47,268 nucleotides of DNA from an uncultured Oscillospiraceae bacterium (GCA_900552225.1 URYX01000001.1:1-47268); one strand, 5' to 3'; positions 5,832 to 43,729 are shown, counted from the stretch's first letter. Program-made: numbers and translations. The notes: generated from the sequence alone by a model not told the origin.

Positions 5832-6737
5832 GTGAAAAAGGATAAAGCAACCGCCTCTGTGCGGCGGCCGGGACGACGGCTGCTGCATCATTTCCGGGTG
5901 GGACACGGCAACCGTTCGCTCGGCGGCAATCTGTGCATGGGCCTGTTTCTGCTGCTGATGGCGGTGTTTATGGTGTTTCCGCTGGTTTATACCGTCTGCA
6001 ACGCCTTCAAGCCGCTGAGCGAGCTGTTTCTGTTTCCGCCGCGCTTCTTCGTGCGCAACCCGACGCTGCAGAATTTCATCGATCTCGGCAATCTGGTGTC
6101 CTCCTCCTGGGTGCCGTTTTCACGCTACCTGTTCAACACGGTATTTATCGCGGCGGCCGGCACGGCGGGACACGTGTTTGTATCGGCCCACGCGGCCTAT
6201 GCGCTGGCCAACAATAAGTTTGCCGGCTCGCGCTTTATCTTCAAGGTGATCGTGCTGTCGCTGATGTTTTCGTCGGCGGTGACCGCGGTGCCGAGCTACC
6301 TGATCCTGGCGGACTTCGGCTGGATCGACAGCTACGCGGCCGTGATCGTGCCGGCCTTCAGCAGCAGCCTCGGCGTCTACCTGCTCAAGCAGTTTATGGA
6401 GGGAGTTCACCCGGCTCTGCTCGAATCGGCCCGCATGGACGGTGCCGGCGAGTTCCGGGTGCTGTGGAGGATCGTGATGCCGATCGTGCGGCCGGCCTGG
6501 CTGACGCTGATCATTCTGATGGTGCAGAACCTGTGGAACAGCAACAGCGGCTATATCTTTTCGGAGCAGCTCAAGACCCTGACCGGAGCGCTCAATCAGA
6601 TCGTGGCCGGCGGCATTGCCCGCGCCGGAACGGCCGGCGCCGCTTCTCTGTTTATGATGATTGTGCCGATTACGGTATTTGTGGTAACGCAGTCCAACGT
6701 CATCGAGACGATGGGTACCTCCGGCATGAAGGATTGA
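5832..6737 (+). CDS. Carbohydrate ABC transporter permease (MalG/CUT1-type)
   Basis: EAA loop ESARMDGAGEFRVLWRIVMPIVRPAW. GTG start after GGAGGGA. Hydrophobic profile. Confidence 0.9.
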   Translation: MKKDKATASVRRPGRRLLHHFRVGHGNRSLGGNLCMGLFLLLMAVFMVFPLVYTVCNAFKPLSELFLFPPRFFVRNPTLQNFIDLGNLVSSSWVPFSRYLFNTVFIAAAGTAGHVFVSAHAAYALANNKFAGSRFIFKVIVLSLMFSSAVTAVPSYLILADFGWIDSYAAVIVPAFSSSLGVYLLKQFMEGVHPALLESARMDGAGEFRVLWRIVMPIVRPAWLTLIILMVQNLWNSNSGYIFSEQLKTLTGALNQIVAGGIARAGTAGAASLFMMIVPITVFVVTQSNVIETMGTSGMKD

Positions 6738-6780
6738 GAACGCACCGTAGGATACGGCAGCGAGGGAAAGGACGGTCGGC

Positions 6781-8262
6781 GTGAAACGATACAGAGGAAT
6801 AGCCGCGGTGCTGTCGGCACTGGTGCTTTGTGTGACCGGCGCGGTGGGAGCCCGGGCGGTGGCCTACGACAGCTATATCTATGAAAAGGAAACGGGAAAG
6901 GCCCTGCGTGCGCCGACGGCCATGGTCCCGGAGCTCTGCCTCAACGGCAATACCTATGCCATGTCACTGTTCCGCAACCCGGAGGACGCGGCGGTGGACG
7001 GCGAGGGCCGGGTGTATATTCTGGATTCCGGCAACAGCCGGGTGGTGTGCCTGTCGCCGGAGCTGGAGCTCCTGTGGACGCTGACCCGCCCGGAGGGGAA
7101 CGGGAGCTTTACCGATGCCCGGGGCCTGTTTGTGGGCAACGGTATGCTGTATATCGCGGACACGGGGCATGCCCGGGTGCTGCAGTACCCGCTGCCGCAG
7201 TCGCAGGAGGAGGCGGACGCGGCGCTGCCGCTCATCCTGGCTCCGAAAAATCTCCTGGTGGAGAACGACACGGGCTTTAAGCCGACCAAGCTGGTGGCGG
7301 ACAGTCAGGGCCGCCTGTTCATCGTGACCGAGGGCGTGTACGAGGGACTGGTGGAGCTGGCCTCCGACGGAGAATTCCTGGCCTATGTCGGTGCCAACCG
7401 CGTCAAAATGTCGCTGCTTGATCAGATCTGGCGGCTGTTTTCCACCGAAGCCCAGTGGCGGGCCAGCGAAAAATTTGTGCCGGTGGAGTTCAGCAACGTC
7501 TGCATGGACAGTGAGGGCTTTATCTTCACCACCTCGCGCGGCACCTCGGGAGACGAGATGCCGATCCGCCGCCTGAACCTGAGCGGCAGCGACGTGCTGA
7601 AGAACGCGGAGGACGAGGTCAGGCTCGGAGATGCCGATCTGCCGTCCCAGGCGGCTGCCACCTATTTCGGAGACGTGGCGGCGGGCCCCTACGGAATGTT
7701 CGCCGGGCTCGACCGGACCCGCGGACGCGTCTTTGTGTATAACGCGGATGTGCGGCTGCTGTTTGAATTCGGCGGCTCGGGCAGCCAGAACGGCACCTTC
7801 CAGAATCCGGTGGCGCTGCTGTGGCTGCAGGACGGACGGATGGCGGTGCTCGACCGCCTGACGGGCAACCTGACCGTGTTCCGCCCGACCGCCTACGGGG
7901 AGCTGGTGCTGTCCACCGCCTACTACGAGGACATCGGAGACTATACGGCCTCGGCCGAGGCCTATACGCGCATCCTGACCATGAACGCCAACAGCGAGAT
8001 TGCCTATGTCGGCGTGGGAGAGCAGTATTACCGCCAGGGAAACTACAAGGAGGCCATGCGCTGCTATCAGCTCGGCAACGACACCAAGTCCTATTCCAAG
8101 GCCTTTGTCAAGGAGCGGCAGAAAACGCTGAGCGTGGTCATTCCGTTCGTAATCGGTGCGCTGCTGCTGGCGGCCCTCGCCGCCATCGTGTCGGCGGTGG
8201 TGAAAAAGGTGCGGGAGCTGCGCGAGAGCGTGCGGAAGATCCGGAATATGCAGAAGCGGTGA
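6781..8262 (+). CDS. Extracytoplasmic NHL-repeat (beta-propeller) plus TPR protein with signal peptide and C-terminal TM anchor
   Basis: Signal peptide MKRYRGIAAVLSALVLCVTGAVGARA. NHL-like repeats (GRVYILDSGNSRVVCL, GMLYIADTGHARVLQY, GRLFIVTEGVYEGLVEL, RVFVYNADVRLLFEFG, GRMAVLDRLTGNLTVF). TPR-like YTRILTMNANSEIAYVGVGEQYYRQGNYKEAMRCYQL. TM helix LSVVIPFVIGALLLAALAAIVSAVV followed by a basic tail. Confidence 0.75.
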   Translation: MKRYRGIAAVLSALVLCVTGAVGARAVAYDSYIYEKETGKALRAPTAMVPELCLNGNTYAMSLFRNPEDAAVDGEGRVYILDSGNSRVVCLSPELELLWTLTRPEGNGSFTDARGLFVGNGMLYIADTGHARVLQYPLPQSQEEADAALPLILAPKNLLVENDTGFKPTKLVADSQGRLFIVTEGVYEGLVELASDGEFLAYVGANRVKMSLLDQIWRLFSTEAQWRASEKFVPVEFSNVCMDSEGFIFTTSRGTSGDEMPIRRLNLSGSDVLKNAEDEVRLGDADLPSQAAATYFGDVAAGPYGMFAGLDRTRGRVFVYNADVRLLFEFGGSGSQNGTFQNPVALLWLQDGRMAVLDRLTGNLTVFRPTAYGELVLSTAYYEDIGDYTASAEAYTRILTMNANSEIAYVGVGEQYYRQGNYKEAMRCYQLGNDTKSYSKAFVKERQKTLSVVIPFVIGALLLAALAAIVSAVVKKVRELRESVRKIRNMQKR

Positions 8263-28633: not shown

Positions 28634-28709
28634 GCGGCTTTAGCTCATCTGGTAGAGCGCCACCTTGCCAAGGTGGAGGTAGCGAGTTCGAGCCTCGTAA
28701 GCCGCTCCA
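28634..28709 (+). tRNA. tRNA-Gly (anticodon GCC), CCA encoded
   Basis: Cloverleaf folded by hand: acceptor GCGGCTT/AAGCCGC, D stem GCTC/GAGC, anticodon stem CCACC/GGTGG with loop TTGCCAA, T stem GCGAG/CTCGT, loop TTCGAGC. 76 nt. Confidence 0.92.
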
Positions 28710-34349: not shown

Positions 34350-35234
34350 TCAGCCGGTATAGGTGGTGACGGTAATGCTCTGGATGGTGACGGCCTCGGT
34401 GGGCTTGCTGTTCTTGTCCACGGCAACGGCCGCAATGGCATCGACCACGTCCATGCCGTCAAACACCTGCCCGAACACGGTGTGTCCGCCGCCCCAGCGC
34501 CAGGCCCCGTCCAGATGGATGTTGCCGCCGGTCTTGGCGTAGAGATCCCATACCTCCTCCGGCACCCACTTGGCAATGGGCGTGAGGCTTGCCTTGGCGT
34601 AGCTGACCAGGTTCGGATACTCGGAGGTGAACTGGCTGCCGTACTTTTTGACGTAAGCGTCATAGTACAGCTTGATATTCCGCATCATCGCGGTGTAGTC
34701 GAAGGCCTCCTTGCCCTTGAACTGCGAAGCGGGAGACTGGTTGATGAAAAACTGGGAGCCGTTGGTGTTCGTGCCGCTGTTGGCCATGGCGAGCGAGCCG
34801 CGCAGATTCATCAGCTTCTGATCGAACTCGTCCTCAAACGCCTTGCCCCAGATGCTCTCGCCTTCGCTGCCGGTGCCCTTCGGGTCACCGCCCTGGATCA
34901 TGAAATTCTGGATGACGCGGTGGAAGGTCAGTCCGTCGTAATAGCCGTTCTGCGCATGGGTCACAAAGTTTTTCACAGCCTTCGGCGCCGCCTCGGGGAA
35001 GAAACGGATGGAGATATCTCCGAGCGAGGTGTGCATCACGGCAATGGTCTCACCGACAGCCGGCGGCTCCAGCTGGAAGCCGTAGGCGCGGTCGGGATAG
35101 GCCGTGCCCACTCCGTTTTGCGGCTCGTCGGGAATGTCGGTAAACGAGGAGTTGGAGGGGTCGGCGTCCTTGCTGCAGGCGCAGAGAGAGACCGCCATGC
35201 ACAGCCCGAGAAGCAGGCAGAGTATGCGTTTCAT
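34350..35234 (-). CDS. Cyclophilin-type peptidyl-prolyl isomerase, lipoprotein, with internal insertion
   Basis: Lipobox LLLGLCMAVSLCACSKD. Cyclophilin blocks [45 protein letters not shown]. About 65 aa are inserted between the last two blocks. Confidence 0.9.
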   Translation of the reverse strand: MKRILCLLLGLCMAVSLCACSKDADPSNSSFTDIPDEPQNGVGTAYPDRAYGFQLEPPAVGETIAVMHTSLGDISIRFFPEAAPKAVKNFVTHAQNGYYDGLTFHRVIQNFMIQGGDPKGTGSEGESIWGKAFEDEFDQKLMNLRGSLAMANSGTNTNGSQFFINQSPASQFKGKEAFDYTAMMRNIKLYYDAYVKKYGSQFTSEYPNLVSYAKASLTPIAKWVPEEVWDLYAKTGGNIHLDGAWRWGGGHTVFGQVFDGMDVVDAIAAVAVDKNSKPTEAVTIQSITVTTYTG

Positions 35235-35314: not shown

Positions 35315-35914
35315 TTATTCGACGGTACGGATATCGATGCTGTTGACGGTGACGGGGGTGAGCGGCTTGTCGCTGCGGTCTACCTCCACCGCGGCGATGG
35401 CATCGACCACATCCATGCCGTCGAATACCTGCCCGAACACGGTGTGACGGAAATCGAGGTGCGGCGTTCCGCCGACCTCGGCATAGGCATCGGTCACCTC
35501 GTCCGGATAACCGCGGTCGCTCAGCGCACGCATCTGACCGATCAGGCGCTCATCCACGGCGGGAGCCTGTACGATAAAGAACTGGGAGCCGTTGGTGTTC
35601 GGACCGGCATTGGCCATGGACAATGCCCCGCGGAAATTGCGCAGCTCCACCGTGCATTCGTCCTCAAACGAGTGCCCCCAGATGCTTTCGCCGCCGCAGC
35701 CCGTTCCGGTCGGGTCGCCGCCCTGGATCATAAAGCCGTCGATGACGCGGTGAAAGGTCAGCCCGTCATAATAGCCGTTTTTCGCGTGGGTGACGAAATT
35801 CTCCACCGTTTTCGGGGCATACTGCGGAAACAGCCGCAGGGAAATATCTCCGAGCGAGGTGTGCATTACGGCAACGGTCTCGCCGGACCTCGGGGTCTCT
35901 AACTGATGATACAT
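35315..35914 (-). CDS. Cyclophilin-type peptidyl-prolyl isomerase, cytoplasmic
   Basis: [60 protein letters not shown]. No signal peptide. Confidence 0.9.
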
Positions 35915-35985: not shown

Positions 35986-37431
35986 TTAATACGCCTTGCC
36001 CCAGTAGACCAGATGATGCGCGGGCTTGCCGCAGCAGACGCAGACCTCCTCCTCGGCGTGCTCCTGCTGATCGAGCGGCATGCAGCGGGAGCCGACGCCG
36101 GTCTGCTCCTTCACGGCCTCCTCACAGGCCGGGTCACCGCACCAGGCGGCCCGTACAAAGCCGTCGCCGTTTTCCGCAAGCGCGGTACGGATCTCGTCGA
36201 GCGTGCGGCAGGTGTAGGTGTGACGCTCGCGGTTTTCGAGCGCCTTTTGATACAGCCCGTCGCGCACCGCCTGCAGCCGGTCGGACAAGGCCGTTTCCAG
36301 CTCGTCGAGCGATACCACCGTCTTTTCGCGGTTGTGGCGCGTGACCAGCACGCACTGGTTCTGCTCAATGTCGCGCGGCCCGATTTCGAGACGCACCGGC
36401 ACACCCTTCATCTCGTATTCGCTGAACTTCCATCCGGCGGAATTCTCGCTGTCGTCGAGCTTGACGCGGAAGGAGCCGGCCAGCCGGTCACGCAGCTCGC
36501 GCGCCTTGTCGAGAACGCCCTCCTTGTGCTGCGCAATCGGCAGAATGACCACCTGGATGGGGGCGACGGCGGGCGGCAGCACCAGGCCGTTGTTGTCGCC
36601 GTGCGTCATGATGATGGCCCCGATCATGCGGGTGGTCATGCCCCACGAGGTCTGATACGGCGTGCATTTGCGGTTGCTTTTGTCCGAGAACTGGATGCCG
36701 AAGGCCTTTGCAAAGCCGTCCCCGAAGTAGTGGGAGGTGCCGGCCTGCAGCGCCTTGCCGTCGTGCATCAGCGCCTCAATGGCGTAGGTGGAGACGGCTC
36801 CCGCAAACTTGTCGCTCTCGGTCTTCTTGCCCTTGATGACCGGAATGGCCAGGTCGCGCTCACAGAAATCGGCATAGACATTCAGCATGCGCTCGGTTTC
36901 CTCAATGGCCTCCTCCGGCGTGGCGTGAATGGTGTGTCCCTCCTGCCACAGGAATTCGCGGGAGCGCAGGAACGGACGGGTGGTCTTTTCCCAGCGCACC
37001 ACGCTGACCCACTGGTTATACAGCTTCGGCAGGTCGCGGTAGGACTGGATGATGTTGGCATAGTGCTCGCAGAACAGCGTTTCGCTGGTCGGACGGACGC
37101 ACAGCCGCTCCTCCAGCTCCTCACTGCCGCCGTGGGTGACCCAGGCCACCTCGGGGGCAAAGCCCTCGACATGCTCCTTCTCCTTGTTCAGGAGACTTTC
37201 CGGAATGAACATCGGCATACACACGTTTTCGTGTCCCGTCGCCTTGAAGCGGCGGTCGAGGTTCTGCTGAATGTTTTCCCAGATGGCATAGCCGTAGGGG
37301 CGAATGACCATACAGCCCTTGACACTGGTATATTCAATCAGCTCCGCTTTCTTGACAATATCGGTATACCATTTGGCAAAATCTTCCTCCATCGATGTAA
37401 TGGAGTCCACCATTTTTTGATTGTCTGCCAT
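35986..37431 (-). CDS. proS: Proline--tRNA ligase, archaeal/eukaryote-like type with C-terminal Zn domain
   Basis: [59 protein letters not shown]-terminal CGDPACE...CVCCGKPA...VYWGKAY. Confidence 0.95.
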
Positions 37432-37672: not shown

Positions 37673-37717
37673 GCGGACAGATGTGCGGTCGGACGGCCGG
37701 GGAGAGGAGAAGGGAAC

Positions 37718-38527
37718 ATGCGATGGATTTTGGTGACCGGAGCCTACGGCGGCATGGGACATGCGGCGGCCCGGGCCCTGGCGGCGGAGGGCTTCGGCGT
37801 GCTGGCGCTGGATCGGACGGTCGGTGAGCCCGAGCCGGGAATCGTCCCCGTGGAGGCGGACGTAACCGATGCCGACAGCCTGCACCGTGCCGCGGAAACG
37901 GCGAAGCAATATACGGAGGAGCTGTTTGCCGTTGTCCATTACGCGGGAATTTACCGGCTGGATTCCCTGGTGGAAATGGCGGAGGAGAGCTTTGAGCAGA
38001 TCTGGCGTGTGAACGTGTTCGGCGCTTTCCACGTCAACCGGATTTTCCTGCCCTTTTTGCGGGAGGGCAGCCGGATCGTGATGATTACGAGCGAGCTGGC
38101 GCCGCTTGACCCCCTGCCCTTTACGGGCATCTATGCGGTGACCAAGGGAGCGCTGGACCGGTATGCCTATGCGCTGTGTATGGAGCTGCAGCTGCTCGGC
38201 ATCTCGGTCTCCGTGCTGCGGGCCGGCGCGGTAAAGACCGGTATGCTCGGGGCCTCCACCGCCGCCCTGGAGCAATTCTGCAGCACCACGCGGCTGTACC
38301 GCTGCAACGCGGCGCGCTTCCGGGCCGTTGTGGACCGCGTAGAGGCCCGCTGCGTGCCGCCGGAGGCGGTCGCGCGGAAAACGGCGGCCATTCTCCGCAA
38401 AAAGCACCCGGCCTTTGCCTACAGCCTCAACCGCAACCCGCTGCTGCTTTTGCTGCATTGCCTGCCGCAGCGGCTGCAGCTGCGGATCATCCGCCGCGTA
38501 CTGCGATTGCGGCCCCGACTTCCGTAA
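37718..38527 (+). CDS. Short-chain dehydrogenase/reductase (SDR) family oxidoreductase
   Basis: MRWILVTGAYGGMGHAAARAL (TGxxxGxG), catalytic YAVTKGAL (YxxxK). ATG follows GGAGAGGAGAAGGG. The tracked start at 37661 is too early. Confidence 0.85.
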   Translation: MRWILVTGAYGGMGHAAARALAAEGFGVLALDRTVGEPEPGIVPVEADVTDADSLHRAAETAKQYTEELFAVVHYAGIYRLDSLVEMAEESFEQIWRVNVFGAFHVNRIFLPFLREGSRIVMITSELAPLDPLPFTGIYAVTKGALDRYAYALCMELQLLGISVSVLRAGAVKTGMLGASTAALEQFCSTTRLYRCNAARFRAVVDRVEARCVPPEAVARKTAAILRKKHPAFAYSLNRNPLLLLLHCLPQRLQLRIIRRVLRLRPRLP

Positions 38528-38606: not shown

Positions 38607-38635
38607 TTGCACTTTTTTGAGATATGGTTTACAAT
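38607..38635 (+). promoter_or_regulatory. Promoter for the ene-reductase/AcnX operon (TTGCAC-17-TACAAT)
   Basis: cTTGCACttttttgagatatggttTACAATc, 61 nt upstream of ATG 38697. The leader contains a 7-bp GC hairpin GCCGCCG/CGGCGGC. Confidence 0.6.
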
Positions 38636-38696
38636 CAGTGTATAGCCTGCCGCCGGAGCGCGGCGGCCAATCCAAAGCTCACGGAGGTTTTGTCAC

Positions 38697-40751
38697 ATGA
38701 ATCAGAGGCTGAACCCGCTGTTTACCCCCTGGAAGATCGGAAGCTGTGAGATCAAAAACCGCATCGTACTGACCAGTATGGGCGGAACGGATCTGTTCGG
38801 ATGGATGGAGAAGAACCATTTTGACCGGGACGGCGCGCGCTTTATTCTGGAGGTGGCGCAGAACAATGTCGGTCTGGTGCTGCCGGGCTGCCAGCCGGTG
38901 TACAACCCCATGTTCGGACAGTGGCTGTACAAAAACAAGAAGATGTACCGCGACCTGAAGGAATGGATGCCCGAATTCCATAAGACGGGTGCCAAGCTGT
39001 TTGTGCAGCTGACGGCGGGCTTCGGACGCTCCTTTACCGTCAGCTCCATGATGGAGACCCTGTATACCAATAAGCTCCTGCGCGCGGTCAGTAAGCCGTT
39101 TATGGATCTGGATAAGATCACGGCGACGGCCAGCCCGTCCCCCAACCGCTGGTCGGATAAGGTGCCCTCCCGCGCCATGACGGTGGAGGAAATTCACGAA
39201 TTCGTGGAGGCCTTCGCCAAGACCGCCCGGCTGCTGCAGGAGGCAGGCGTGGACGGCGTGGAGGTGCACGCGGTGCACGAGGGCTACCTGCTCGATCAGT
39301 TTACGCTCGGCTATGTCAATAAACGCACCGATGAGTACGGCGGCTCCTTTGAAAACCGCTATCGCTTCCCCGTGGAGATCGTACAGGCCATCAAGAAGGC
39401 CTGCGGCAAGGAGTTCCCCGTGTCGCTGCGCTACAGCGTCATCTCCAAGACCAAGGGCTTCCGTCAGGGCGCGCTGCCCGGCGAGGAATACACCGAGGTC
39501 GGCCGTGCAATGGAGGAATCCGAAAGGGCGGCCAAATACCTGCAGGACGCGGGCTACGACTGCCTGAACTGCGACAACGGCACCTACGATGCCTGGTACT
39601 GGGCACACCCGCCGATCTATATGCCGGAAAACTGCAACCTGGCCGACGTGGAGCATATCCGGCAGTTTGTGGACATCCCCGTGGTCTGCGCCGGCCGGCT
39701 GGATCCGGAGGTCGCGGCCGATGCGGTGGCGGCCGGAAAGCTGGACGGCGCGGGCTTCGCGCGCCGGTTCCTGGCGGATACCGCCTGGGTGACCAAGCTC
39801 ATGGAGGACCGCCCGGAGGACATCCGTCCCTGCATCCTGTGCCATAACGGCTGCTTCAACATGTGTCATTATAAGGGTGTGCCGAACGATCAGGACCTGT
39901 CGGACAGCCTGCATCTGTCGCGCTGCGCCGTCAACGCAGAGACCATGCAGTGGAGCAAGCACTATATCCGTAAGACCTCCTCACCGCAGACCGTACATAT
40001 CGTCGGCGGCGGTATCGGCGGCATGGAGGCGGCCCGCGTGCTGGCGCTGCGCGGGCATCACCCCGTGATTCACGAAAAGAGCGGTGAGCTCGGCGGAGCC
40101 TTTATCCCCGCGAGCGCGGAATCCTATAAGGGCAAGCTGCGCGACCTGCTGTGCTGGTATCGCCGTCAGATGGAGCAGCTCGGGGTCGAGGTGCATCTGA
40201 ACGAGGAAATTCAGGATACCGCCGCGTTCGGTGGCGCCCCGGTCATTGTGGCCACCGGCGCTGTCCCGCGCCTGCTGCGGCGCGTGCCGGGCTATGAGCG
40301 GATGATCGAGGCGTGCGACTTCCTGCGCGGTCATGAGGTCGGGGAGACGGTGGCTGTCATCGGCGGTGGACTGACCGGCTCGGAAATCGCCTATGAGCTG
40401 GCGCTGCAGGGCAAAAAGCCCCTCATCGTGGAGATGAAGGACGATCTGATCAGCCAGAAGGGCGTATGCCTTGCCAACTCCTCCTATCTCCGGGAGTGGT
40501 TCGCCCTGCATCAGGTGCCGGTCTATCTGGAGACCGCCCTGAAGGAGGTGCGCCCCGGCGAGATTGTCTGCACCGATAAGTCCGGAGCCGAGCTGACGAT
40601 TCCCTGCGACTCGGTCATCAGCTGTGCCGGCTATATCCCGGCGCCGCTGACCGCCAAGGGCAGGCGCGTGCATTTCGTCGGAGACTGCCGCGCGGTCGGC
40701 AACCTCCGCTCCGTAATCTGGAACGCCTATGAAACGGCGATGAAAATCTGA
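38697..40751 (+). CDS. NADH:flavin oxidoreductase of the OYE / 2,4-dienoyl-CoA reductase / 2-enoate reductase class (FMN TIM barrel, 4Fe-4S, FAD/NAD(P) domain)
   Basis: LFTPWKIGSCEIKNRIVLTSMGG, GVDGVEVHAVHEGYLLDQF, RTDEYGGSFENRYRF (OYE). Cys cluster CILCHNGCFNMC...C. Rossmann motifs IVGGGIGGMEAARVLALRGH and VIGGGLTGSEIAYELA. Confidence 0.9.
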   Translation: MNQRLNPLFTPWKIGSCEIKNRIVLTSMGGTDLFGWMEKNHFDRDGARFILEVAQNNVGLVLPGCQPVYNPMFGQWLYKNKKMYRDLKEWMPEFHKTGAKLFVQLTAGFGRSFTVSSMMETLYTNKLLRAVSKPFMDLDKITATASPSPNRWSDKVPSRAMTVEEIHEFVEAFAKTARLLQEAGVDGVEVHAVHEGYLLDQFTLGYVNKRTDEYGGSFENRYRFPVEIVQAIKKACGKEFPVSLRYSVISKTKGFRQGALPGEEYTEVGRAMEESERAAKYLQDAGYDCLNCDNGTYDAWYWAHPPIYMPENCNLADVEHIRQFVDIPVVCAGRLDPEVAADAVAAGKLDGAGFARRFLADTAWVTKLMEDRPEDIRPCILCHNGCFNMCHYKGVPNDQDLSDSLHLSRCAVNAETMQWSKHYIRKTSSPQTVHIVGGGIGGMEAARVLALRGHHPVIHEKSGELGGAFIPASAESYKGKLRDLLCWYRRQMEQLGVEVHLNEEIQDTAAFGGAPVIVATGAVPRLLRRVPGYERMIEACDFLRGHEVGETVAVIGGGLTGSEIAYELALQGKKPLIVEMKDDLISQKGVCLANSSYLREWFALHQVPVYLETALKEVRPGEIVCTDKSGAELTIPCDSVISCAGYIPAPLTAKGRRVHFVGDCRAVGNLRSVIWNAYETAMKI

Positions 40752-40767
40752 GAAAGGCGGGAAAACC

Positions 40768-42054
40768 ATGACATATACGATGAAGCTGACCGAGGAGCAG
40801 GAGGCCATCCTGAACGGCAGCCGCGGCGAGACCATGGCCAAGGTAATGGAGACGCTGGTGCGCTACGGCGAGCTGTTCGGCGCCGATGAGATGGTGCGTG
40901 TGACGAGCCGGTATAACCACCTGGTCACCTCCTTCGGACTGAAGGCGCTGGCCCCCGTGTACGCACTGATGGATCAGCTGATTGAGGCCGGCGCCGTATC
41001 GGAGCAGAAATTCTCCGCCGATCCGCGGCCGCTCGACAGCCGCGTCCCGAGCAGTCTCCTGCAAAACCTGGTGTTTAAGAAATTCATGTACACCAAGCAG
41101 GACTTTTATGAGGAGCAGCTTGCGAAGCTCGGCCTCATGGATAAGGATGCCTTCACCTGCACCTGCTACATGAAGGAGGTCGGCAACACACCGGAAAAGG
41201 GGGACATCCTCTCATGGTCGGAGTCGTCCGCCGTGGTGTATGCCAACTCGGTGCTCGGCGCGCGCTGCAACCGCAACTCCGGCATCATTGACCTCATGGG
41301 CTCGATCGTCGGCTATGTGCCGTCGTTCGGTCTGCTGAAGGACGAGGGGCGCAGGGCCGACTGGATCGTGGAAATCCGCACCGAGAAGAAGCCGGAGGCG
41401 CAGCTGCTCGGCTCGGCCATCGGCATGAAGGTGATGGAGGACGTACCCTATATCCGCGGCCTGGACCGCTTCCTCGGCAGCGGACTCAGCGAGGAGACCA
41501 AAACCTATCTCAAGGATTTCGGAGCGGCGACTGCCTCCAACGGCGCCGTCGGACTGTACCATGTGGAGAACATCACACCGGAGGCGGTGGAGCAGGGCGA
41601 GAGCCTGATCCGCGAAAACGCCAGGGTCTACGTGATCGACGACGCGGAGCTGCAGCGCGTGTACGACAGCTATCCCGTGATCTGGAAGAATAAGAACGCC
41701 AGGCCGAGGCTGTGCTTTATGGGATGTCCGCATATGAGCCTGCAGCAGCTGACAGAATGGACGGAGAAAATCGAGGCCGGCCTGAAGGAATCCGGCTGCA
41801 GCCGCGTGACCGTGCCGACCGTCTTTACGGCCGCCCCCGCTGTGCTCAAGGCCTTTGAGCAAACGCCCTATGCGGAGCGCCTGAAAAAGACCGGCGTGAT
41901 CACGAGCTATATCTGCCCGCTGATGTATATGAACAACCCGCTGAGCACCAGTATGCCGGTAATCACATCGAGCAACAAGCTGCGTACCTATACCAGCGCC
42001 CGCTACTACACGGACGATGAAATCCTCGCGCAGATTACGAAGGAGGAGCGGTAA
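40768..42054 (+). CDS. Aconitase-X (AcnX, DUF521) catalytic large subunit
   Basis: MKLTEEQEAILNGSRGETMAKVMETLVRYGELFGADEMVRV... is the typical AcnX/DUF521 N-terminus. Conserved Cys contexts FTCTCYM, GARCNRNSG, FMGCPHMSL. Followed by a DUF126 gene. Confidence 0.8.
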   Translation: MTYTMKLTEEQEAILNGSRGETMAKVMETLVRYGELFGADEMVRVTSRYNHLVTSFGLKALAPVYALMDQLIEAGAVSEQKFSADPRPLDSRVPSSLLQNLVFKKFMYTKQDFYEEQLAKLGLMDKDAFTCTCYMKEVGNTPEKGDILSWSESSAVVYANSVLGARCNRNSGIIDLMGSIVGYVPSFGLLKDEGRRADWIVEIRTEKKPEAQLLGSAIGMKVMEDVPYIRGLDRFLGSGLSEETKTYLKDFGAATASNGAVGLYHVENITPEAVEQGESLIRENARVYVIDDAELQRVYDSYPVIWKNKNARPRLCFMGCPHMSLQQLTEWTEKIEAGLKESGCSRVTVPTVFTAAPAVLKAFEQTPYAERLKKTGVITSYICPLMYMNNPLSTSMPVITSSNKLRTYTSARYYTDDEILAQITKEER

Positions 42055-42055
42055 C

Positions 42056-42499
42056 ATGAAAATTTTCAAGGGACGGGTCGTAGCCGCCGGAAACGTGACG
42101 GCGGAGGCCCTGGTATCGCACGGCGGACTCAATACGCTGGCTTCGTTTCAGAAGGCCCTGCAGTTCGGAGATAAAAAGGCCACCTGCGGGGATCAGAATA
42201 ACCCCGATCTGTACGGAAAGCAGATGCTCGGCCGGGCGCTGTGCCTGCCGCGCACCATCGGCTCCACGACGGGCGGCCTGGTGCTCTACTGCGCCTGCGC
42301 CATGAAGCGCCAGCCGGCCTGTCTGCTGTTCTCCGAGCCGATCGATTCCCTGGCGGCCGCCGGCGCCATTCTGTCGGATGTGTGGCTGGAGGGAACACCG
42401 CTTCCGGTCATCGACAGCCTCGGAGAGGAGTTCCTTGATTACGTCCGGGACGGCATGACCGTCACCGTGCACGAGGACGGTACGGTGGAGATTCGCTGA
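42056..42499 (+). CDS. Aconitase-X swivel-domain small subunit (DUF126)
   Basis: ATG 42056 lies 1 nt after the upstream TAA, with AGGAGGAG RBS. MKIFKGRVVAAGNVTAEALVS..., LCLPRTIGSTTGGLVL, PACLLFSEPIDSLAAAGAIL, PLPVID match the DUF126 pattern. Confidence 0.75.
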   Translation: MKIFKGRVVAAGNVTAEALVSHGGLNTLASFQKALQFGDKKATCGDQNNPDLYGKQMLGRALCLPRTIGSTTGGLVLYCACAMKRQPACLLFSEPIDSLAAAGAILSDVWLEGTPLPVIDSLGEEFLDYVRDGMTVTVHEDGTVEIR

Positions 42500-42559
42500 C
42501 CGCGCTGCCGCATCCGCAAAGTCCCCGCCCAGGCCGGGTTTCTCCCGCGCCCATATGCC

Positions 42560-42596
42560 AAAAAACGCATCGGCCGCCGTCGGTCGATGCGTTTTT
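42560..42596. terminator. Bidirectional intrinsic terminator (AcnX operon / kinase gene convergent)
   Basis: AAAAAACGCATCGgccgccgtcggtCGATGCGTTTTT. Confidence 0.8.
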
Positions 42597-42640
42597 GGTG
42601 TATCTGTATTTTTCCTGTTCCCCATAGCTCCACAGCCCTT

Positions 42641-43537
42641 TCACGGCGCCTCCGCCCGCAGAATCTCCTTGGCCAGTGTCCCGGCATGGCGCGCATACCA
42701 CCCGTCCTCGTCCTCGTCGGCCTCGATAAACTCCACATATTCGTTCAGAACCGCCAGCCGGATATCGCGGATGTACTGCGGATAGTCGGGCTTTTCCTTC
42801 AGCCGCTCATATACCCCGTCCAAAAACAGCCGCTTCTGCGGTCGGGTCATGAAAAACGGGAAGGTGGCTCGGTTCTCCGTGGCGTGCGCGATGAACCGCG
42901 CAATATCCAGACTGTAGGGCATAATGCCGCCGAAGCCCCAGTCGATCAGATATACCCTGCCGCCCCGTCCGATAGCATTCCACTGCAGAAAATCGCCGTG
43001 GGACAGGGTACGCGGACAGACCTCCTGCCGCTCCAGAAAGAGCCGATAGGCGCGCCCAATCACCGGCTCGTCCTGGATATATTTTCCGCGCCGGCGGATT
43101 CTTTCCCAGTATACGTCAAATCGCTCCGTGTCGGGATGCCCCCAGAAGCCGTTCTGAATCTGCGCGAGACTCTCGGCTGCCGCCCGGGCTGCCTCCTTTG
43201 TCATCTCCCTGAGATCGTGCCCCGCGATGTATTCGGTCAGAATCCAGACGTCCGAACCGTCCGCGCGGGAGCCGTAAAACGCGGGAGCCGCAAAATCCTG
43301 CCGGCGGAGATACCGCTCATAGTTGTCGGCCTCCCGCCGCGAGGTCTTTTTCAGAATGCGGTCGCCGCCCGCGGAACTCAGCCGGTATACGTCGTACTTC
43401 CTGCAGTCCCCGGCCTCCTCGCCGTACTGCTCACAGATTCTGCGTACATTCCCAAAGACGGTGCCGGGCAGAATCTCCTCAGCTCTGCGCAGTATTTCGC
43501 CGCCCTCGATCGCCTGTTCAAACGTTCCGATTTCCAT
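42641..43537 (-). CDS. APH/choline-kinase-like phosphotransferase family protein
   Basis: Start MEIGTFEQ after GGAGG (the tracked start at 43624 is too early). Catalytic loop LSHGDFLQWNAI and YLIDWGFGG. Confidence 0.8.
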   Translation of the reverse strand: MEIGTFEQAIEGGEILRRAEEILPGTVFGNVRRICEQYGEEAGDCRKYDVYRLSSAGGDRILKKTSRREADNYERYLRRQDFAAPAFYGSRADGSDVWILTEYIAGHDLREMTKEAARAAAESLAQIQNGFWGHPDTERFDVYWERIRRRGKYIQDEPVIGRAYRLFLERQEVCPRTLSHGDFLQWNAIGRGGRVYLIDWGFGGIMPYSLDIARFIAHATENRATFPFFMTRPQKRLFLDGVYERLKEKPDYPQYIRDIRLAVLNEYVEFIEADEDEDGWYARHAGTLAKEILRAEAP

Positions 43538-43642
43538 AGGTGCCTCCGTTCGGATTGAGTGGTCCTGTCTGCTGCCGCATAAGAGGCCAAAGCGGGGGGA
43601 GAAGCGAAAGCCGGCAGGTATCACAGGGTACCTGCCGGCTTA

Positions 43643-43729
43643 TGGTGCCGCTGACGAGACTTGAACTCGTACAGCATTGCTGCCGAGGGATTTTAAGTCC
43701 CTTGTGTCTGCCGATTCCACCACAGCGGC
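43643..43729 (-). tRNA. tRNA-Leu (anticodon UAA), long variable arm, CCA encoded
   Basis: Minus strand GCCGCTGTGGTGGAATCGGCAGACACAAGGGACTTAAAATCCCTCGGCAGCAATGCTGTACGAGTTCAAGTCTCGTCAGCGGCACCA. Acceptor GCCGCTG/CAGCGGC, anticodon stem AGGGA/TCCCT with loop CTTAAAA. 87 nt. Confidence 0.92.

Follow-up and report, generated by a model that had tools for sequence, protein, structure and literature searches.

A predicted module for reductive β-dehydroxylation pairs an aconitase X dehydratase with an Fe-S flavin reductase in anaerobic bacteria

An uncultured Oscillospiraceae bacterium carries, within a stretch of 47,268 nucleotides (GCA_900552225.1 URYX01000001.1:1-47268; hereafter the window, that is, the whole stretch of DNA analyzed, to whose positions the coordinates of its genes refer), three co-directional genes that probably constitute a module for the reductive β-dehydroxylation of a small carboxylic acid, without coenzyme A (CoA) activation. 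The first gene (38697-40751, + strand) encodes a predicted ene-reductase of 684 amino acids, while the second (40768-42054, +; 428 amino acids) and the third (42056-42499, +; 147 amino acids) encode the large subunit (AcnXL) and the small "swivel" subunit (AcnXS) of aconitase X (AcnX), respectively. The gaps between them measure 16 and 1 nt, as an initial annotation of this DNA had indicated, and the same annotation had suggested that a hydroxy acid is dehydrated by AcnX and the product then reduced by the flavoenzyme. The dehydrate-then-reduce reading is adopted here because of three lines of argument, namely the chemistry of the two families, the conservation of residues important for it and the comparative genomics of the gene pair.

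The association of the reductase with AcnX is beyond chance. The initial annotation had let its proposal stand or fall with the conservation of the pair in other genomes, and the pair is indeed widely conserved. In particular, when a single genome for each GTDB species was scanned from the AcnX side, at least 594 relatives were recovered among the 600 matches listed, and the best 80, which are 75-86% identical, were analyzed; their genomes are labelled as Oscillospiraceae, Lachnospiraceae, Mogibacterium, Anaerovoracaceae and others. The reductase gene is found directly upstream of AcnXL in 64 of the 75 informative species loci, i.e., those of the 80 with enough upstream sequence, and AcnXS directly follows AcnXL in 79 of 80, with median gaps of about 13 nt between reductase and AcnXL and of -4 to +2 nt between the two AcnX genes. 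The flanking genes are unrelated between loci (for example GerA/NfeD/Band7, a WYL regulator, sigma/anti-sigma factors, glycosidases and FeoB), and the distance matrices of the reductase and of AcnXL co-vary (Mantel r = 0.62; 0 of 999 permutations). The converse scan, starting from the reductase, covered metagenome contigs and looked no further than 4 kb downstream. Among the 76 contigs with room downstream, AcnXL directly follows the reductase in 36 and stands in another arrangement in six more, these being the order AcnXL-AcnXS-reductase in three contigs (with an AcnXL 55-68% identical to that of the window), a divergent orientation in one and a 500-nt spacer in two. The best protein relatives of the window belong to uncultured Eubacterium and to metagenome-assembled genomes (MAGs) of Eubacteriales, and near-identical DNA occurs in manure and gut metagenomes; the window probably stems from a gut bacterium of the Oscillospiraceae/Eubacteriales type. 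Cultured species with the module include Bariatricus massiliensis AT12 (L015) and Capillibacterium thermochitinicola (L167). Modules 77-81% identical are also present in a contig of Collinsella massiliensis (L024, labelled Actinobacteria) and in a Bacteroidaceae MAG (L052, labelled Bacteroidetes), and these may derive either from horizontal transfer or from contamination and mis-binning.

The module is not special to gut anaerobes. Eleven distant AcnX loci were sampled from the relatives of a 44%-identical representative, and six of them, from Capillibacterium, Anaerolineaceae, Tissierellia and digester or sediment contigs, carry an adjacent protein of 722-757 amino acids with Oxidored_FMN and Pyr_redox_2 domains. 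In a seventh locus, filed as Bacteroides sp. (L173), the AcnXS stop codon is overlapped by the gene of a 303-amino-acid 4Fe-4S ferredoxin plus nitroreductase protein (6717-7628). The AcnX subunits of four of these seven reductase-bearing loci were compared with those of the window, to which they are 54-59% identical and with which they share the signature motifs HLVTSFG, DPRPxD, NSNKLRTY and TIGSTTG. By comparison, three of the distant long reductases are just 27-29% identical to the product of gene 1, and in them C-x2-D-x3-C replaces C-x2-C-x3-C. In other words, AcnX keeps a flavin reductase at its side while the identity of that reductase changes, and this is the pattern expected if the product of AcnX must be reduced. 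The three reductases with an Asp in place of the second cluster cysteine (L167, 6870-9038; L169, 6810-9083; L172, 222-2495) have in common with gene 1 the unusual motif YD(N/A)W(W/Y)xxHPP. As a separate observation on the AcnX loci, several related environmental contigs (L167/L168 and L175-L178) encode, directly next to the AcnX module, a methyl-accepting chemotaxis protein that measures about 490-500 amino acids and has a weak DUF4077-like N-terminal region; in L175 this protein stands beside AcnX, and the reductase is absent.

The identity of the two AcnX subunits, proposed in the initial annotation as DUF521 and DUF126 proteins, is firmly supported by Pfam. Specifically, gene 2 matches PF04412 (AcnX) with an E-value of 1.4e-91 and 307.6 bits against a cut-off of 31.5, and gene 3 matches PF01989 (AcnX_swivel) with an E-value of 1.2e-10 and 41.5 bits against a cut-off of 27, so that both profiles of the two-subunit family are matched. 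Among solved structures, the best relative of gene 2 is the large subunit of Thermococcus TkAcnX (7cnr_A; E 2e-41, 34% identity); the cis-3-hydroxyproline dehydratase of Agrobacterium is more distant (E 2e-18), and gene 3 aligns with 7cnr_B (E 1.6e-07), its GSTTG motif facing Tk Ser62-Thr63-Val64. In the known structures of the family, a common set of residues handles the carboxylate, the C3-hydroxyl and the C2-hydrogen of the substrate (PMC8184944), and the whole of this set is recognizable in the window. The cysteines of the cluster are Cys131, Cys320 and Cys383 (Tk C110, C283 and C342), the residues holding the substrate are Glu152-Ser153-Ser154, Lys404 and Tyr408 (Tk E129-S131, K361 and Y365), and the putative catalytic serine of the swivel subunit is Ser70, located in the GSTTG motif (Tk S62), which is invariant in 57 orthologues. 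More generally, 57-75 orthologues show no variation, or almost none, at the catalytic and cluster residues. The two subunits are not always encoded separately: one protein (P0004), present on five contigs from three sources, is an in-frame fusion of 578 amino acids in which the large subunit (1-425), a GGQKI linker and the small subunit (431-576) follow one another, an order that is the reverse of that of the known fused type-I AcnX.

Despite this common machinery, the window enzyme differs from both characterized kinds of AcnX. Like the type IIb enzymes TkAcnX (7CNR/7CNS) and ApAcnX, which are archaeal mevalonate-5-phosphate dehydratases, it has the two-subunit DUF521 plus DUF126 architecture and, as in TkAcnX, three equivalent cysteines, the Glu-Ser-Ser stretch, the Lys, the Tyr and the swivel Ser. 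However, the phosphate-binding set made up of Tk Asn53, Asn79 and the G48-V49-S50 loop is replaced, with Asp85 at the place of Asn79 and an invariant YNHLVTSFG at that of the loop; moreover, its partner is a reductase, whereas that of type IIb AcnX is a UbiD-type decarboxylase, and the mevalonate-pathway context is lacking. In a neighbor-joining tree of 50%-identity representatives, gene 2 groups with bacterial sequences in a clade that lies at a clear distance from the Tk-type one. With the cis-3-hydroxy-L-proline dehydratases (LhpI/AtAcnX), on the other hand, the window enzyme has in common the superfamily and the β-elimination chemistry, but the LhpI profile NF051439 gives 140.4 bits against a cut-off of 700, the landmarks of that activity, among which a Cys-x-Cys ligand pair is counted, are absent (Trp35 is Leu, no Asp stands at the position of Asp203, Cys510 is Leu) and the third cysteine occupies the Tk position and not that of At Cys510. 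A close affiliation with these dehydratases, which the initial annotation had named as an outcome that would count against its proposal, is therefore contradicted by the profile score, by the structural E-values and by the missing landmarks alike. Where the two solved enzymes bind the distal portion of their substrates, as located by alignment, the window enzyme has the invariant polar or charged residues His51, Thr54, Ser55, Asp85, Arg87 and Asp90, together with Thr72 of the swivel subunit. Two activities of AcnX, and no more, are known, and the bacterial type-II subclasses IIc-IIf, which lack the landmark residues of both, await characterization (PMC8184944). The AcnX of the window fits this description and would represent a separate bacterial type-II clade, the separation in the tree being from type IIb.

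As for the reductase, gene 1 belongs to the Fe-S flavoenzymes, i.e., the 2,4-dienoyl-CoA reductase/2-enoate reductase superfamily, in agreement with the class of flavin mononucleotide (FMN), 4Fe-4S and flavin adenine dinucleotide (FAD) enzymes to which it had been assigned at the outset. Its Oxidored_FMN domain spans residues 8-374 (E 1.6e-50) and its Pyr_redox_2 domain residues 433-653 (E 3e-23). The former contains an old yellow enzyme (OYE)-type motif, H191-x2-H194-x2-Y197, and is followed by the cluster motif C379-x2-C382-x3-C386...C410 and by two dinucleotide folds, GGGIGG at 437 for FAD and GGGLTG at 556; an acidic residue after this second fold suggests NADH as the electron donor, following the general rule. 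The best solved relatives are the naphthoyl-CoA reductase NCR (6qkg; E 2e-51, full-length alignment) and FadH (1ps9; E 9e-44). Gene 1 thus has in common with 2,4-dienoyl-CoA reductase, 2-enoate reductase, BaiCD, BilR and NCR the FMN barrel, the Cys motif, the FAD and NAD(P)H architecture and the OYE-like His/His/Tyr site, but differs in having no CoA-ligase or CoA-transferase gene nearby. Three more precise identities were considered and ruled out on the curated NCBIfam cut-offs, these being BaiCD (313.7 against 825 bits), BilR (316.3 against 750 bits for the long form) and the mycofactocin OYE, whose score lies far below. It follows that the reductase does not belong by score to the BaiCD or BilR pathway, an outside membership that had been foreseen as a possible objection. 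The Fe-S flavoenzymes are strongly expanded in Clostridia, with more than 800 gene-cluster families, and in the survey of such clusters in gut Clostridia no dedicated AcnX partner is reported (PMC7371122).

The two activities can be combined in a simple scheme. In the AcnX family, the hydrogen at C2 is abstracted and the hydroxyl at C3 is expelled. The heterodimer would bind the carboxylate and the C3-hydroxyl of its substrate at a cluster of the [4Fe-4S] type that has Cys131, Cys320 and Cys383 as its ligands, with the participation of Glu152, Ser153, Ser154, Lys404 and Tyr408; Ser70 of the swivel subunit would then take the C2 proton, and the elimination of water would yield a 2-enoate, or an enamine/imine if C2 bears nitrogen. 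In the second step, electrons would flow from NAD(P)H to FAD, to the 4Fe-4S cluster and to FMN within the 684-amino-acid flavoenzyme, and the OYE-type site formed by His191, His194 and Tyr197 would reduce the new double bond to give the saturated acid. The net reaction would be exergonic and could serve a fermenting anaerobe as an NADH sink. Pairs of a dehydratase and an enoate reductase are well known in fumarase with fumarate reductase and in CaiD with CaiA, which convert carnitine to γ-butyrobetaine. The predicted module follows the same logic, from β-hydroxy acid to enoate to saturated acid with disposal of electrons, although its protein families are unrelated to theirs; in addition, the carnitine route depends on CoA, whereas the window module encodes no CoA-handling enzyme. 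A dehydrate-then-reduce logic also exists for AcnX itself, as in aerobes the product of cis-3-hydroxyproline dehydratase is reportedly reduced by a separate Δ1-pyrroline-2-carboxylate (Pyr2C) reductase. That reductase is of the ornithine-cyclodeaminase type or of the malate/lactate-dehydrogenase type, while here an OYE/Fe-S flavoenzyme is found.

Several observations weigh against the module reading and have to be set beside the evidence just described. AcnX occurs without the reductase in 11 of the 75 species loci, which form two or three clades, and in 4 of the 11 distant loci; conversely, about 34 of the 76 contigs carry a reductase orthologue (78-83% identity) with no AcnXL within up to 4 kb downstream. 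Either enzyme can consequently be encoded, or function, without its partner, and the link is strong and not obligatory. The reductase-only contigs are concentrated in two compact subclades nested among the linked ones, so that they look like repeated samples of a small number of secondary separations. Furthermore, in profile and PDB searches gene 1 is only distantly related to every characterized enzyme, and homology therefore does not fix the class of its substrate, be it a C=C or a C=N bond, in a free acid or in a thioester. A search of RNA runs for the locus retrieved no genuine run containing it. Finally, no transporter or regulator is consistently attached to the module across the neighborhoods examined, and its neighbors consequently give no pointer to the substrate.

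A number of genes do recur beside the module, namely an SdaA-like gene with an amino-acid ATP-binding cassette (ABC) transporter, DUF5058 with a second membrane protein, a TRAP-TAXI system and the chemotaxis protein already described. Each is confined to one or a few lineages, and therefore none has been taken as defining. In one prevalent lineage (L081-L084, 9729-10931; L004, 9883-11085; L008), a gene for a 400-amino-acid Fe-S protein resembling L-serine dehydratase (SDH_beta plus SDH_alpha) forms a fourth gene of the operon and overlaps the stop codon of AcnXS, and a polar amino-acid ABC transporter is encoded a few kb upstream in the same loci. In nine others (L011, L014, L016, L017, L027, L117, L120, L121 and L124; e.g., L120, 7781-9347), the module is followed by a DUF5058 protein of about 250 amino acids with five predicted membrane spans, and in those checked (L117, L120, L121 and L124) a second, unannotated membrane protein of 254 amino acids comes after it. 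The two may together form a transporter; no paper mentioning DUF5058 was found in the literature. With regard to specific substrates, the conversions of citrate/aconitate to tricarballylate, of 3-hydroxybutyrate to butyrate and of carnitine to γ-butyrobetaine, as well as the use of 3-hydroxy-3-arylpropionates, were considered; nothing in the data favors any of them, and none is asserted.

The main rival to the proposed scheme, which we regard as unlikely, is a variant in which the substrate is a β-hydroxy-α-amino or imino acid. The enamine or imine, formed by AcnX in the manner of LhpI acting on cis-3-hydroxy-L-proline, would not be hydrolyzed to a 2-oxo acid and would instead be reduced by the flavoenzyme to a deoxy amino acid, for example from a hydroxyproline-like to a proline-like compound. 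In line with this variant, swivel Thr72 stands where AtAcnX has the Thr72 that touches its substrate's ring nitrogen (PMC8184944), but the other residues that bind the nitrogen and the ring in AtAcnX, Asp203, Trp35, Ile206 and Cys510, are not conserved, and the LhpI score remains at 140 against 700 bits. The SdaA-like gene and polar amino-acid ABC transporter (L004, L008, L081-84), the C69 and M28 peptidases and the OPT transporter found among sporadic neighbors, an amine-oxidase-like flavoprotein in L172 and ProS near the module in the window and in L037 would all suit an amino-acid substrate, yet the amino-acid-related neighbors are each confined to one lineage, and as lineage-specific features they make a modest case. 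Lineages with AcnX alone would fit a deaminating dehydratase, whereas those with the reductase alone are harder to explain, as an unstable imine would then be without a source.

Less likely again is the possibility that the two enzymes are independent or loosely related neighbors, with AcnX acting alone as a dehydratase or isomerase, the flavoenzyme reducing an external unsaturated compound and their adjacency reflecting co-regulation or shared history. The reductase-only contigs (about 34 of 76), the AcnX-only loci (11 of 75 and 4 of 11) and the great expansion of clostridial Fe-S flavoenzymes into more than 800 gene-cluster families (PMC7371122) all speak in its favor. However, unlinked genes are limited to a few compact clades and most loci show overlap or tight spacing; moreover, adjacency has a wide taxonomic spread and outlasts changes in gene order, the exchange for a 27-29%-identical reductase and the exchange for a nitroreductase-type protein.

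An oxidative direction of the same pathway appears very improbable. The flavoenzyme would here desaturate an acid, AcnX would hydrate the enoate and a short-chain dehydrogenase/reductase (SDR) would oxidize the β-hydroxy acid, amounting to a CoA-free β-oxidation. The reactions of the aconitase family are reversible, BaiCD-type relatives of the reductase can run oxidatively (PMC11574389) and an SDR is encoded upstream of the module in the window, with other SDRs beside it in L021 and L083. These latter are, however, different proteins, and none of the other 160 loci yielded an SDR matching that of the window; in addition, no electron-accepting partner, either an electron-transfer flavoprotein or a quinone-linked one, is encoded nearby in the loci examined. 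From general thermodynamics, the oxidation of an unactivated alkanoate to an enoate by NAD+ is strongly unfavorable.

Least probable of all, and close to being discarded, is that AcnX has either of the known activities, dehydration of mevalonate 5-phosphate or of cis-3-hydroxy-L-proline: TkAcnX is the closest solved structure, and the window enzyme shares its two-subunit architecture and three cluster cysteines, but identity to it is 34% in a separate clade, the Tk phosphate ligands are replaced, LhpI lies far below its cut-off, every neighborhood examined is free of mevalonate-pathway and hydroxyproline genes and the structure authors describe IIc-IIf as devoid of the landmarks of both activities (PMC8184944).

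Both protein families of the reductive module were known beforehand, and what is new is their pairing. A literature search for AcnX, DUF521/DUF126 and enoate reductases combined with dehydratases found no description of an AcnX-ene-reductase module, in keeping with the impression, recorded in the initial annotation, that such a route had not been described for AcnX. It is possible, and we advance it tentatively as falling somewhat short of an even chance, that the module embodies a third AcnX function, in which a widespread bacterial type-II AcnX and a dedicated flavin reductase carry out the CoA-independent reductive dehydroxylation of a common β-hydroxy acid as an NADH sink. The reductase partner would have been exchanged at least twice, the function would extend to at least about 600 species of gut and environmental anaerobes, and the chemoreceptor neighbor of one lineage would suggest an external nutrient as the substrate. 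In gut Clostridia, most Fe-S flavoenzymes are without a known substrate, and the module joins a large orphan clade of each of its two families. Human and animal gut metagenomes contain it in abundance, and the reaction scheme is concrete and testable. Were the substrate identified, anaerobic metabolism would gain a new reductive pathway and probably a new pair of microbial metabolites, and thousands of genes now labelled "DUF521/DUF126" could be annotated.

The three genes of the window have the features of a transcription unit. Third-position GC content is 0.79-0.84 in all three open reading frames, as is typical of coding sequence, and long antisense reading frames over the region are by-products of a G+C content of 62.6%. 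A Shine-Dalgarno-like motif precedes each start codon, with GGAGG at 38683-38687 (+), 9 nt 5' of the start of gene 1, and AAGGAGG within 42040-42058. An in-frame alternative start at 42017 would lengthen gene 3, whose orthologue alignments begin at 42056. A candidate sigma-70-type promoter, TTGCAC-17 nt-TACAAT, can be read at 38607-38635 (+), 61 nt 5' of the ATG of gene 1. The hexamers and the position given for it in the initial annotation are exact; as to its standing as a promoter, the element agrees with the consensus at 8 of 12 positions, a level at which shuffled sequence yields about two matches per 7 kb, and it was not reported by a promoter scan with a threshold of at least 9 of 12, so that a function as the operon promoter is plausible. 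The terminator previously placed at 42560 is a stronger case. It is intrinsic and bidirectional (42560-42596, both strands), and consists of an A-run, an 11-bp G+C-rich stem, a 4-nt loop and a T-run. The 111-nt segment that includes it (42500-42610) has a minimum free energy of -47.1 kcal/mol (z = -3.93), with none of 200 shuffles as stable. The same terminator is common to the operon and to a convergent kinase-like gene coding for an APH-like phosphotransferase (42641-43624, -). A hairpin of the operon leader is no more stable than shuffled sequence, and a comparison with Rfam detected no family at gathering score in the window and no credible candidate in the leader.

The remaining neighbors named in the initial annotation are all present. 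An SDR gene, recognized by Pfam, lies upstream of the operon at 37715-38527; two genes for cyclophilin-type prolyl isomerases (34350-35234 and 35315-35914), the first of which has a lipoprotein-like N-terminus, and the adjoining proS (35986-37431) are all on the - strand. The annotation had suspected that this proline-related neighborhood is a coincidence, and so it appears, because ProS stands near AcnX in just one other locus (L037). Two tRNA genes complete the picture, one (43646-43729, -) directly upstream of the phosphotransferase gene and the other at 28634-28706 (+).

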